Under the pieces are notes generated by a model that was given only the letters and a program-made list of their open reading frames with translations, had not been told where the DNA came from and did not search any database. Positions 6,946-7,291 of a stretch of 59,611 nucleotides of DNA are shown in pieces. Made by a program: the position numbers and the translations under genes. The first letter of the stretch is position 1; each line of letters opens with the position of its first letter. Source of the DNA: Candidatus Tagabacteria bacterium (GTDB taxonomy: Bacteria > Patescibacteriota > Minisyncoccia > GCA-002779875); NCBI GenBank assembly GCA_963820595.1, contig CAWGAO010000001.1, forward strand, positions 1 to 59,611, in the 5' to 3' direction.

Positions 6946-6999
6946 GTGAATTTGCCCACGATTTAAAACGAAGTGATAAATCGTGGTTGCAAAACCCTT
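6946..6999 (+). repeat. bulged-hairpin flank module (copy 1)
   Basis: GTGAATTTGCCCACGATTT-loop-AAATCGTGGTTGCAAAACCCTT; homologous copies at 20609-20660 and 27675-27728 (minus). Confidence 0.85.
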
Positions 7000-7246
7000 A
7001 CCCCGCCCTCTATGCATTACGTCTACATTTTGAAACGAGAAAATAGCAAAGAATTCTATATCGGTTATACTAATAATTTAGAGCGGCGACTAATCGAGCA
7101 TCAAAATAAAGAAAAATGTGCTTTAATTTATTACGAAGCCTATCTATTGGAAAAATCCGCCAGAGAAAGAGAAAAAAAACTTAAATATTACGGAAGTGCT
7201 TGGCGAGCGCTTCAAAAGAGAATTAATAATGCTTAGAGGGCGGGGT
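7000..7246 (+). mobile_element. putative GIY-YIG cassette bounded by a 20-bp inverted repeat
   Basis: ACCCCGCCCTCTATGCATTA and TAATGCTTAGAGGGCGGGGT match 19/20; the same ends bound short copies at 20661 and 28441. Confidence 0.65.
7012..7236 (+). CDS. small GIY-YIG nuclease (74 aa)
   Basis: MHYVYIL...FYIGYTNNLERRLIEH...YYEAY...AREREKKLK, the UPF0213-type signature. Confidence 0.9.
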   Translation: MHYVYILKRENSKEFYIGYTNNLERRLIEHQNKEKCALIYYEAYLLEKSAREREKKLKYYGSAWRALQKRINNA

Positions 7247-7291
7247 GATGATTTTCTAAAACTCACTTCGCTCGTTAAGAAAATCAATCAT

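Follow-up and report, generated by a model that had tools for sequence, protein, structure and literature searches.

What kind of genetic unit is a gene whose start and stop codons lie in the two arms of a single inverted repeat? The question is raised by a 74-aa open reading frame (ORF) for a GIY-YIG-type nuclease in the window analysed here, a stretch of 59,611 nucleotides that makes up positions 1 to 59,611 of contig CAWGAO010000001.1 (Candidatus Tagabacteria bacterium, assembly GCA_963820595.1). One such ORF, enclosed by its own inverted-repeat arms, constitutes a 247-bp unit (7000-7246), and this unit belongs to a class-wide family of mini-elements of the Candidate Phyla Radiation (CPR)/Patescibacteria that are closed by hairpins, combining C-rich arms of 16-20 nt with a minimal stand-alone nuclease of 72-90 aa from the UPF0213/Slx1-like branch. 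The nuclease gene of the unit points the same way as the host gene next to it on the downstream side. We favour, at a probability of roughly 0.6, its interpretation as a selfish or semi-domesticated hairpin element whose nuclease would act on its own arms by analogy with the action of Ssn nucleases on NTS hairpins. The source genome (G000) is a 570-kb assembly in 10 contigs, about 56% complete and with 42% G+C.

A nuclease gene inside its own arms

The arms at 7000-7019 and 7227-7246 are complementary at 19 of 20 positions, the sole mismatch being a T.T pair in which the T of the nuclease ATG faces the T of its TAG; a looser pairing extends over 29 nt at 86% complementarity. Immediately 5' of the ATG (7012-7014) lies ACCCCGCCCTCT, a sequence found five times in the window against an expectation of 0.11, and the TAG (7234-7236) is part of the right arm. 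An earlier, sequence-only reading of this DNA had described a 247-bp unit bounded by a 19/20 inverted repeat and filled by a 74-aa GIY-YIG ORF, with the ATG directly after ACCCCGCCCTCT and the stop in the right arm, and the arms, the codons and the Pfam match all agree with that description. Where it took the 247-bp unit for the element itself, it was right that the unit is real; the unit is, however, only the core of a composite insertion of 346 bp (6946-7291), in which hairpin X, the nuclease unit and hairpin Z follow in that order. The features of the block and its surroundings are:

6327-6776, minus strand: tsaE, the divergent upstream neighbour (Pfam TsaE PF02367, E=8.4e-33)
6880-6945, plus strand: upstream stretch common to relatives (GTCAAGATTG...AAAATGATAGGAATAA), from the alignment with loci L031 and L032
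6946-6999, plus strand: module X, with hairpin stems 6955-6965 / 6977-6986 and loop AAAACGAAGTGAT, followed by TTGCAAAACCCTT
7000-7019, plus strand: left arm ACCCCGCCCTCTATGCATTA, which holds the nuclease start codon
7012-7236, plus strand: nuclease ORF of 74 aa with a single GIY-YIG domain (Pfam PF01541, E=3.4e-11)
7227-7246, plus strand: right arm TAATGCTTAGAGGGCGGGGT, which holds the TAG stop and, at 7229, an ATG in frame with the downstream gene
7247-7291, plus strand: module Z, with hairpin stems 7249-7260 / 7275-7286, ending at the ATG of the next gene
7292-8434, plus strand: 380-aa host gene, without a Pfam match at E<=0.01

The insertion is delimited by comparison with four metagenome contigs that encode the 380-aa neighbour protein at 60-69% identity. 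Homology with L031 and L032 ends at AAAATGATAGGAATAA, around position 6945, and in these relatives the ATG follows within another 4-6 nt, at a point where the window adds 346 bp; as judged from this alignment, 6946-7291 is therefore a lineage-specific composite insertion that separates the start codon of the 380-aa gene from the conserved stretch upstream. Consistent with this, the distance from tsaE to the 380-aa gene is 94 bp in L031 versus 515 bp in the window, and the next intergenic region measures 62-94 bp in the relatives versus 303 bp of nested hairpin units in the window, so that two adjacent intergenic regions are empty in the relatives L031-L033. Empty orthologous sites of this kind are among the things that the sequence-only reading had proposed to look for. 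It had also named the neighbours as tsaE and DHH; Pfam upholds the former, and the latter is not recovered by the Pfam search with the 380-aa protein. A scan of genome contigs with that protein returned no relative.

Module X is one copy of a multicopy family, other copies of which begin at the stop codon of the upstream gene, and module Z is one copy of a multicopy family of hairpins that abut start codons. The predicted fold of the block consists of three stems, formed by X, the arms and Z (z=-6.1 against shuffles as DNA and z=-5.5 as RNA), and in both folds the arm stem buries the nuclease ATG. The stretch upstream of the block is presumed to be a promoter region, although a promoter and terminator scan predicted no promoter there; the same scan found no convincing site inside 6946-7291 and nothing terminator-like, and it gave no support to candidate -10 boxes in the Y/Z hairpins. 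Upstream of its ATG, the frame of the 380-aa gene stays open across hairpin Z and the right arm (window 7196-7292), and the in-frame ATG at 7229 (TAATGCTTAG) overlaps the last nuclease codons to yield MLRGRGDDFLKLTSLVKKINH-MKEALEK. Its position makes this ATG a possible means of coupling translation of the host gene to that of the nuclease ORF.

GIY-YIG (PF01541) is the only domain type in the 74-aa protein, with two related GIY-YIG-type families matching the same stretch. Y5, Y16, R26, H30 and E42 are all intact; in an alignment of 26 homologues from related genomes, Y16, G18, R26, H30 and E42 are invariant and Y5 is nearly so, and by our reading the five residues Y5/Y16/R26/H30/E42 would correspond to the GIY-YIG catalytic set (Tyr, Tyr, Arg, His, Glu). 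An AlphaFold2 model adopts a compact GIY-YIG fold (pLDDT 93.5), to which the nearest solved structures are, in order, the UPF0213 proteins BH0048 and EF2693, Slx1 and the catalytic domain of I-TevI. BH0048 (1zg2) is both the top Foldseek match and the best of these by profile (E=5.1e-14 over positions 2-73), ahead of EF2693 (1ywl; E=6e-11) and Slx1 (E=1.7e-5). These UPF0213 proteins, of the YhbQ/YazA type, and the Slx1 domain are thus the closest relatives by profile and fold; the window protein is shorter than the former, whose structure entries are annotated only as 'hypothetical', and differs from Slx1, which works with Slx4 and has a RING domain. It falls in a short subgroup of 72-75 aa, with a deletion of about 11 residues behind the conserved His. 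No DNA-binding domain was found in the 74 aa, the match to TIGR01453 reaching 21.9 bits versus a cut-off of 56, and Rfam searches revealed no intron family that would place the gene in a group I intron: at gathering thresholds nothing matched in the window, and at E<=1 nothing meaningful was obtained around the nuclease element and at five loci of the ~150-bp family described below and its relatives.

Arms, nuclease and selection in related genomes

Is this layout peculiar to one locus? In a survey of 61 related genomes of the same class, 46 contained small GIY-YIG homologues, at 1-7 per genome, and 30 such loci were fetched for arm scoring. With a score of at least 11 as the cut-off for an ORF-hugging inverted repeat, a near-perfect repeat of 12-25 nt touched both start and stop at 18 of the 30 loci versus 11 of 689 control ORFs of the source genome (1.6%; Fisher p=7.5e-21), an enrichment that the sequence-only reading had proposed to look for. 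With these arms and the empty sites described above, neither of the outcomes that it had named as refuting its idea was obtained. The arms vary by lineage, yet remain complementary with a C-rich outer end (ACCCCGCCCTCT, ACCCCGCACATAAATTT, GCCCCTCACTTG, ACCCAGCCCCAG, ACCCCCACACC, ATCCCGTTAGAGA), and their similarity follows that of the proteins weakly (Mantel r=0.25, 141/5000 permutations). A co-oriented ORF lies within about 65 nt downstream of at least 12 of the 18 nuclease units, and a tRNA gene follows two of them. Three further small GIY-YIG ORFs occur in the source genome itself, two of which are hugged by other inverted repeats (CTCCCTCACTCGAAAATT... and GCCCAGACACTAACTTTGGAAT...) and one of which has a tRNA-like 5' half on one side and a tRNA-Lys gene on the other.

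The closest homologue of the window nuclease (L001) belongs to another taxonomic family (L002, 69-71% aa identity). Among 73 codons the two genes differ at the first position in 20, at the second in 14 and at the third in 50, and their codon changes comprise 33 that are synonymous only versus 22 that are non-synonymous; both 16-nt arms are identical, and the outer X-type flank has diverged in sequence. From these substitution patterns and the identity of the arms it follows that the nuclease protein is under purifying selection and that the arms are under sequence constraint, rather than mere pairing constraint, as would be expected of a protein recognition site. Three nuclease copies (L004, L006 and L007) carry internal stop codons.

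Gene-less units and their settings

The same arms also bound units without a gene. The sequence-only reading had listed two nuclease-free copies of about 100 bp with the same ends and nine further arm sites; the two copies measure 101 and 100 bp, and all nine sites are inverted-repeat-bounded units with ACCC../..GGGT ends. Within the window these are:

3161-3315: unit whose arms, ACCCGCGCCCCAGTTTTGC / GCAAAACTGGAGCGGGGT, enclose a GC-rich core; a Y hairpin and an ATG come next
8483-8578: unit with arms ACCGAGCACTCAG, within the 303-bp nested-hairpin intergenic region (62-94 bp in relatives)
10436-10546: unit of the ACCCCGTTAGAAGT family, beginning directly after a TGA stop
12947-13023: short unit with arms CCCGTTAGAAAA / TTTTCTAATGGG
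20331-20473: unit with arms GCCCCGTAAAGCAAAATCGAA / TTCGATTTTGCCTTACGGGGT
20661-20761: gene-less family-1 unit of 101 bp between a module X and the rnpA leader, with its ATG-type end on the right
21920-21958: arms-only hairpin ACCCGCCCAAGTTTTTGC-TTCG-CAAAAATTTAGGCGGGT, with Y-type hairpins on both sides
27563-27674: unit of the ACCCCCTCTTTTA family, with a Y hairpin on one side and an inverted X hairpin on the other
28441-28540: gene-less family-1 unit of 100 bp, with a Y hairpin and start codon on the left and a gene end on the right
46600-46712: unit of the ACCCCGTTAGAAATT family
59394-59537: unit with a GC-rich core between its arms ATCCCGTTCCAATTTTTC / GAAAAATTGGGGCGGGAT

Family 1, whose 16-nt terminal arms are common to the nuclease copy and the gene-less copies, is represented in the source genome by about 13-15 gene-less units (29 arm matches), and the units of all arm families number at least 48 in 570 kb. 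By genome, family-1 arms amount to 29 in G000, 7 in G009, 6 in G012, 6 in G004 and 0 in G001, which belongs to the same family as the source; besides its seven arms, G009 holds a cognate nuclease. The arrangement of an autonomous copy with gene-less partners, as put forward in the sequence-only reading, is real; the 16-nt arms are all that the two kinds of copy have in common. Even the asymmetry of the ends is preserved: the TAG-type end is kept in every gene-less copy examined (13 in G000 and seven from G009, G012 and G004), and the other end is ATG-type in 9/13 of the G000 copies and 7/7 of the others, being otherwise one base away.

Gene-less family-1 units have a length of 97-104 bp. Their interiors show no similarity to the nuclease ORF, with local alignment z-scores of -1.0 to 1.2, which is the level of shuffled sequence, and they are therefore not simple deletion derivatives of the nuclease unit, an origin by internal deletion having been considered and rejected on this ground. 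In 9 of 13 copies the interiors are also unrelated to one another, the exception being one subfamily of four; two of its members, C1:20661 and C8:59581, are about 90% identical and lie in opposite orientation relative to the X/Y flanks, so that the unit behaves as a module independent of its flanks. Another candidate explanation, that the gene-less units are short-peptide genes ending in ..RLEGG through the right arm, was dropped, as the frame is present in 5-6 of 13 and its downstream continuation differs. The other arm families, among them ACCCCGTTAGAAGTT with about 20 copies, ACCCCCTCTTTTA with 7-9 copies and ACCCCCTCACTCGAAAT, likewise have constant arms, narrow length ranges and mostly unrelated interiors, with a short conserved core in some. 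A family of ~150-bp units with arms ACCCCGCCCTTTTGG possesses a conserved GC-rich core (GCAATGCGC...GCGCCCGCGCATTGC) that looks structured and has no Rfam match; its copies are located at C7:21577-21729, C8:54153-54305, C7:62380-62529 and C6:76677-76823, and related cores are found in the window at 3161-3315 and 59394-59537.

Units of this kind occupy a recurrent intergenic module that reads stop codon, X hairpin, GC-arm hairpin, Y/Z hairpin and ATG, within a genome that contains about 59 hairpins of the X/Y/Z types. In 25 of 48 units the start of an outward-pointing gene is 30-60 nt from an arm, a distance equal to the length of a Y/Z hairpin. At the rpsL-rpsG junction (C8:51265-51361) X is joined directly to Y with no GC-arm unit, resembling an 'empty' version of the stop-X-unit-Y-ATG module. 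Since the same Y variant adjoins different arm families, the composites are mosaics.

Insertion into or next to hairpins and gene boundaries, with host function left intact, is the common theme of these settings. In one case (C7:123778-124005), a ACCCCGTTAGAA unit has another of its kind inside its central small hairpin, the inner one being flanked by CTTA at both ends, and from its sequence this pair (C7:123839) could represent a target duplication of 4 bp within a hairpin loop. A Z-type hairpin before a gspE-like ATPase gene (8579-8737) is split by a C-rich insert (8588-8703) between left stem and loop, another nested insertion. The relatives L009 and L010 are positioned at tRNA 5' ends, where duplications of 7-12 bp rebuild the tRNA start. 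Two loci in G004, L040 (G004:C8:3460-3770) and L041 (G004:C12:13830-14140), contain family-1 gene-less units of 98 and 102 bp; by our reading of the host sequences, these are 23S-like and 16S-like rRNA genes, respectively, in which the units would act as intervening sequences.

Further tRNA-like contexts were observed in the source genome. At C6:75378-76000, the second small GIY-YIG unit (arms GCCCAGACACTAACTTTGGAAT) directly adjoins a tRNA-like 5' half whose anticodon loop is seemingly interrupted by an inverted-repeat segment (CCGCACCAAAAAT.../...ATTTTGGTGCGG); this segment carries the only tRNA-Asp gene found by ARAGORN in the 56%-complete assembly, and the T-loop bears another small hairpin. 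At C7:61350-61800, the third small GIY-YIG ORF lies between a tRNA-like 5' fragment and tRNA-Lys(TTT), next to which comes a second tRNA-like sequence with a 7-bp D-stem that ARAGORN did not call.

Known systems and competing readings

The sequence-only reading had not recognised a described system here, a judgement that holds only in part after comparison with the Ssn proteins, bare single-domain GIY-YIG nucleases of about 94 aa that are specific for single-stranded DNA (ssDNA) (Chenal et al. 2025, Nat Commun, PMC11893778). This was the one directly relevant study that literature searches brought up. Ssn binds a hairpin repeat (NTS/SRM) and cuts the adjoining ssDNA, even when the hairpin is split into two oligonucleotides; SRMs flank 42% of ssn genes on both sides, and the NTS-ssnA-NTS arrangement was likened by its authors to an insertion sequence and to REP/RAYT (PMC11893778), the pairing of repetitive extragenic palindromes with their associated tyrosine transposases. 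Because that work describes the pairing of nuclease and hairpin repeat, the present system is not wholly undescribed. The two have in common a bare GIY-YIG protein of less than 100 aa, a gene bracketed by multicopy hairpin repeats, and co-variation of nuclease and repeat. They differ in that the window gene lies inside one long-range hairpin with its codons in the arms, whereas an Ssn gene lies between two self-contained hairpins, and in that the window genome has discrete gene-less units of about 100-150 bp at stop/start junctions. New relative to the Ssn paper are this nested gene-inside-hairpin layout, the discrete gene-less units and their placement at gene boundaries in CPR genomes; mobility, too, is unpublished.

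Other repeat systems share parts of the layout. REP/REPIN-RAYT pairs and IS200/IS605 elements likewise consist of a single enzyme gene, bordered by hairpins of its own, and numerous hairpin copies without a gene, and hairpin recognition in ssDNA is presumed for both them and the window system; the window enzyme is of GIY-YIG and not HUH type. Bacterial miniature inverted-repeat transposable elements (MITEs), such as the Correia elements of Neisseria, are short intergenic multicopy units of about 100-150 bp with terminal inverted repeats, often near gene starts. The window units are equally short, intergenic, multicopy, inverted-repeat-ended and often close to gene starts, but their gene-less interiors do not derive from an autonomous copy and are mostly unrelated to each other, and the candidate enzyme is no DDE transposase. 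Intervening sequences of rRNA genes resemble them as stem-bounded inserts in helix loops, a likeness extended by the family-1 units inside rRNA-like sequence in G004, and differ in that most copies of the window families are intergenic; rRNA intervening sequences are not known to pair with a GIY-YIG nuclease. ORFs of 130 aa at C2:5623-6015 and L031:346-741, the former bracketed by an AT-rich inverted repeat (GTATTATGTATTATGT / ACATGATACATAATAC), encode what we take, by eye alone, to be four-helix-bundle '23S rRNA intervening-sequence' proteins.

As a hairpin element driven by its own nuclease, the unit could work as follows. When the DNA becomes single-stranded, during replication, repair or cruciform extrusion, the arms would pair; the nuclease would recognise the arm hairpin in a sequence-specific manner and nick beside it, as its relative Ssn does at NTS hairpins; and host repair or replication would then copy or move the unit into GC-rich hairpin loops and X/Y junctions at gene boundaries. 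Units that have identical arms and no gene would be relics or else non-autonomous partners served in trans. An upstream promoter of the host would transcribe the nuclease gene, and the arm stem that buries its ATG would keep expression low. We infer nuclease activity, recognition of an ssDNA hairpin and any step of transposition or homing, and suggest that the nuclease may mobilise the units or maintain them. A stronger version, advanced tentatively and at rather less than even odds, is that the units constitute a previously unrecognised class of autonomous prokaryotic mobile element, whose sole protein is a bare 72-90-aa GIY-YIG nuclease recognising the hairpin of its own ends, whose insertion at stop/start junctions and in loops spares host expression, and which seeds non-autonomous partners of about 100 bp.

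Several observations weigh against the hairpin-element reading. No clear target-site duplication is found at 7000/7246 and no consistent one across units; an ATGA duplication around hairpin Z was rejected as a candidate, given that ATGA/TCAT belong to the palindrome itself and so provide no evidence of target duplication. Being fairly distant (60-68% protein identity), the empty-site relatives testify to gain or loss rather than to recent mobility. G004 has family-1 gene-less units and no detected cognate nuclease, and a constant length of 97-104 bp together with unrelated interiors is unexplained by simple MITE biology. X, Y and Z hairpins assort independently of the arm families, and the block may be a mosaic of several events; that the elements are found at almost all types of gene boundary would be compatible with a function for the host as well. 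Finally, the SRM motif HGTCWYN(0-2)YYVSBRHN(0-5)WNVSBRGN(0-2)RNCYNB has 2 matches in the genome versus 1-3 in shuffles, none of them near the element.

Some of these points would suit a domesticated Ssn-like host system, serving the control of ssDNA recombination or uptake or the architecture of intergenic regions and spreading mainly by recombination or gene conversion. Such a role, which we consider unlikely, has a precedent in Neisseria, where Ssn/NTS modulates transformation (PMC11893778), and would agree with purifying selection on the protein across taxonomic families, with the systematic position of units at gene boundaries (X at stops, Y/Z at starts), with the mosaic assortment of modules and with the persistence of arm families in G004; it is at odds with a patchy distribution that leaves none in the same-family genome G001, with the empty orthologous sites, with the parasitic look of units in G004 rRNA genes and beside or inside tRNA genes, and with the nuclease copies that contain internal stops. 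Alternatively, the protein might be a free-standing homing endonuclease that cuts uninterrupted ACCCCGCC-NNNN-GGCGGGGT hairpins and is copied in by break repair, the arms being its split target and the gene-less units unrelated fillers that protect the site. Short 4-nt-loop hairpins with ACCCCGCC/GGCGGGGT stems do exist between the same X and Y modules (C7:67720-67920 and C5:56660-56850), arm specificity tracks protein lineage, and the duplications at L009 and L010 rebuild a tRNA. This account is nevertheless improbable, for the 74-aa protein is without a DNA-binding domain, unlike known GIY-YIG homing enzymes, the inner parts of the 16-20-nt arms are specific to each family and missing from the short hairpins, and gene-less units retain the same inner arms and ATG/TAG asymmetry.

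More improbable still is a device acting at the RNA level, in which stems hide the nuclease start, guide processing of the RNase III type and leave the host gene with a near-leaderless mRNA once more, the gene-less units being regulatory or terminator hairpins and the nuclease a passenger. The RNA fold that buries the ATG, the termination of Y/Z hairpins at start codons without a Shine-Dalgarno sequence and the tolerance of units inside rRNA genes, in the manner of intervening sequences, speak for it. Yet arm mismatches are not enriched in G.U pairs (5 G.T, 3 A.C and 15 others in 20 oriented units, numbers too small to decide between pairing as RNA and as DNA), the arms are identical in sequence across genomes and not merely complementary, neither a terminator-like site nor an Rfam match was obtained, and copy-number variation between genomes would be left unexplained. 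Hardly credible, lastly, is the idea that the genome's RAYT-like HUH transposase controls the units as repeats of the REP/REPIN type, with the GIY-YIG gene merely inside one of them. The genome does have a Y1 transposase gene (C7:166374-166649) beside another small GIY-YIG gene, but its palindrome CCAAGGTCSGACCTTGG bears no relation to the ACCCC arms and is limited to C7:166-168 kb, in 5-6 copies, and the enzyme was rejected as driver of the units because this palindrome is private to its own locus. In that region (C7:166100-166900), CCAAGGTCSGACCTTGG is found before, inside and after the transposase gene, which adjoins the GIY-YIG unit C7:165641-165853.

In summary, the hairpin element with its own nuclease remains our preferred reading, and the chance that these units form a new class is real but unproven. 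Lineage-specific pairs of a tiny nuclease and 16-20-nt arms would, by analogy with Ssn, which has been proposed as a source of sequence-specific ssDNA nuclease tools (PMC11893778), amount to a natural library of such nucleases. If the nuclease moves or maintains the units, prokaryotic repeat and transposon families would have GIY-YIG as a driver alongside the HUH, DDE, serine and tyrosine enzymes, in an element of about 250 bp, and the 247-bp copy would rank with the smallest self-contained mobile elements of cells. Such a role would also show how genomes tolerate insertions at gene boundaries and, as it appears, in rRNA and tRNA genes, and would help to explain the crowding of nested hairpins between the genes of streamlined CPR genomes, which in the source genome amounts to at least 48 units in 570 kb; in these ultra-small bacteria, the hairpin-unit family may represent very small mobile DNA elements.

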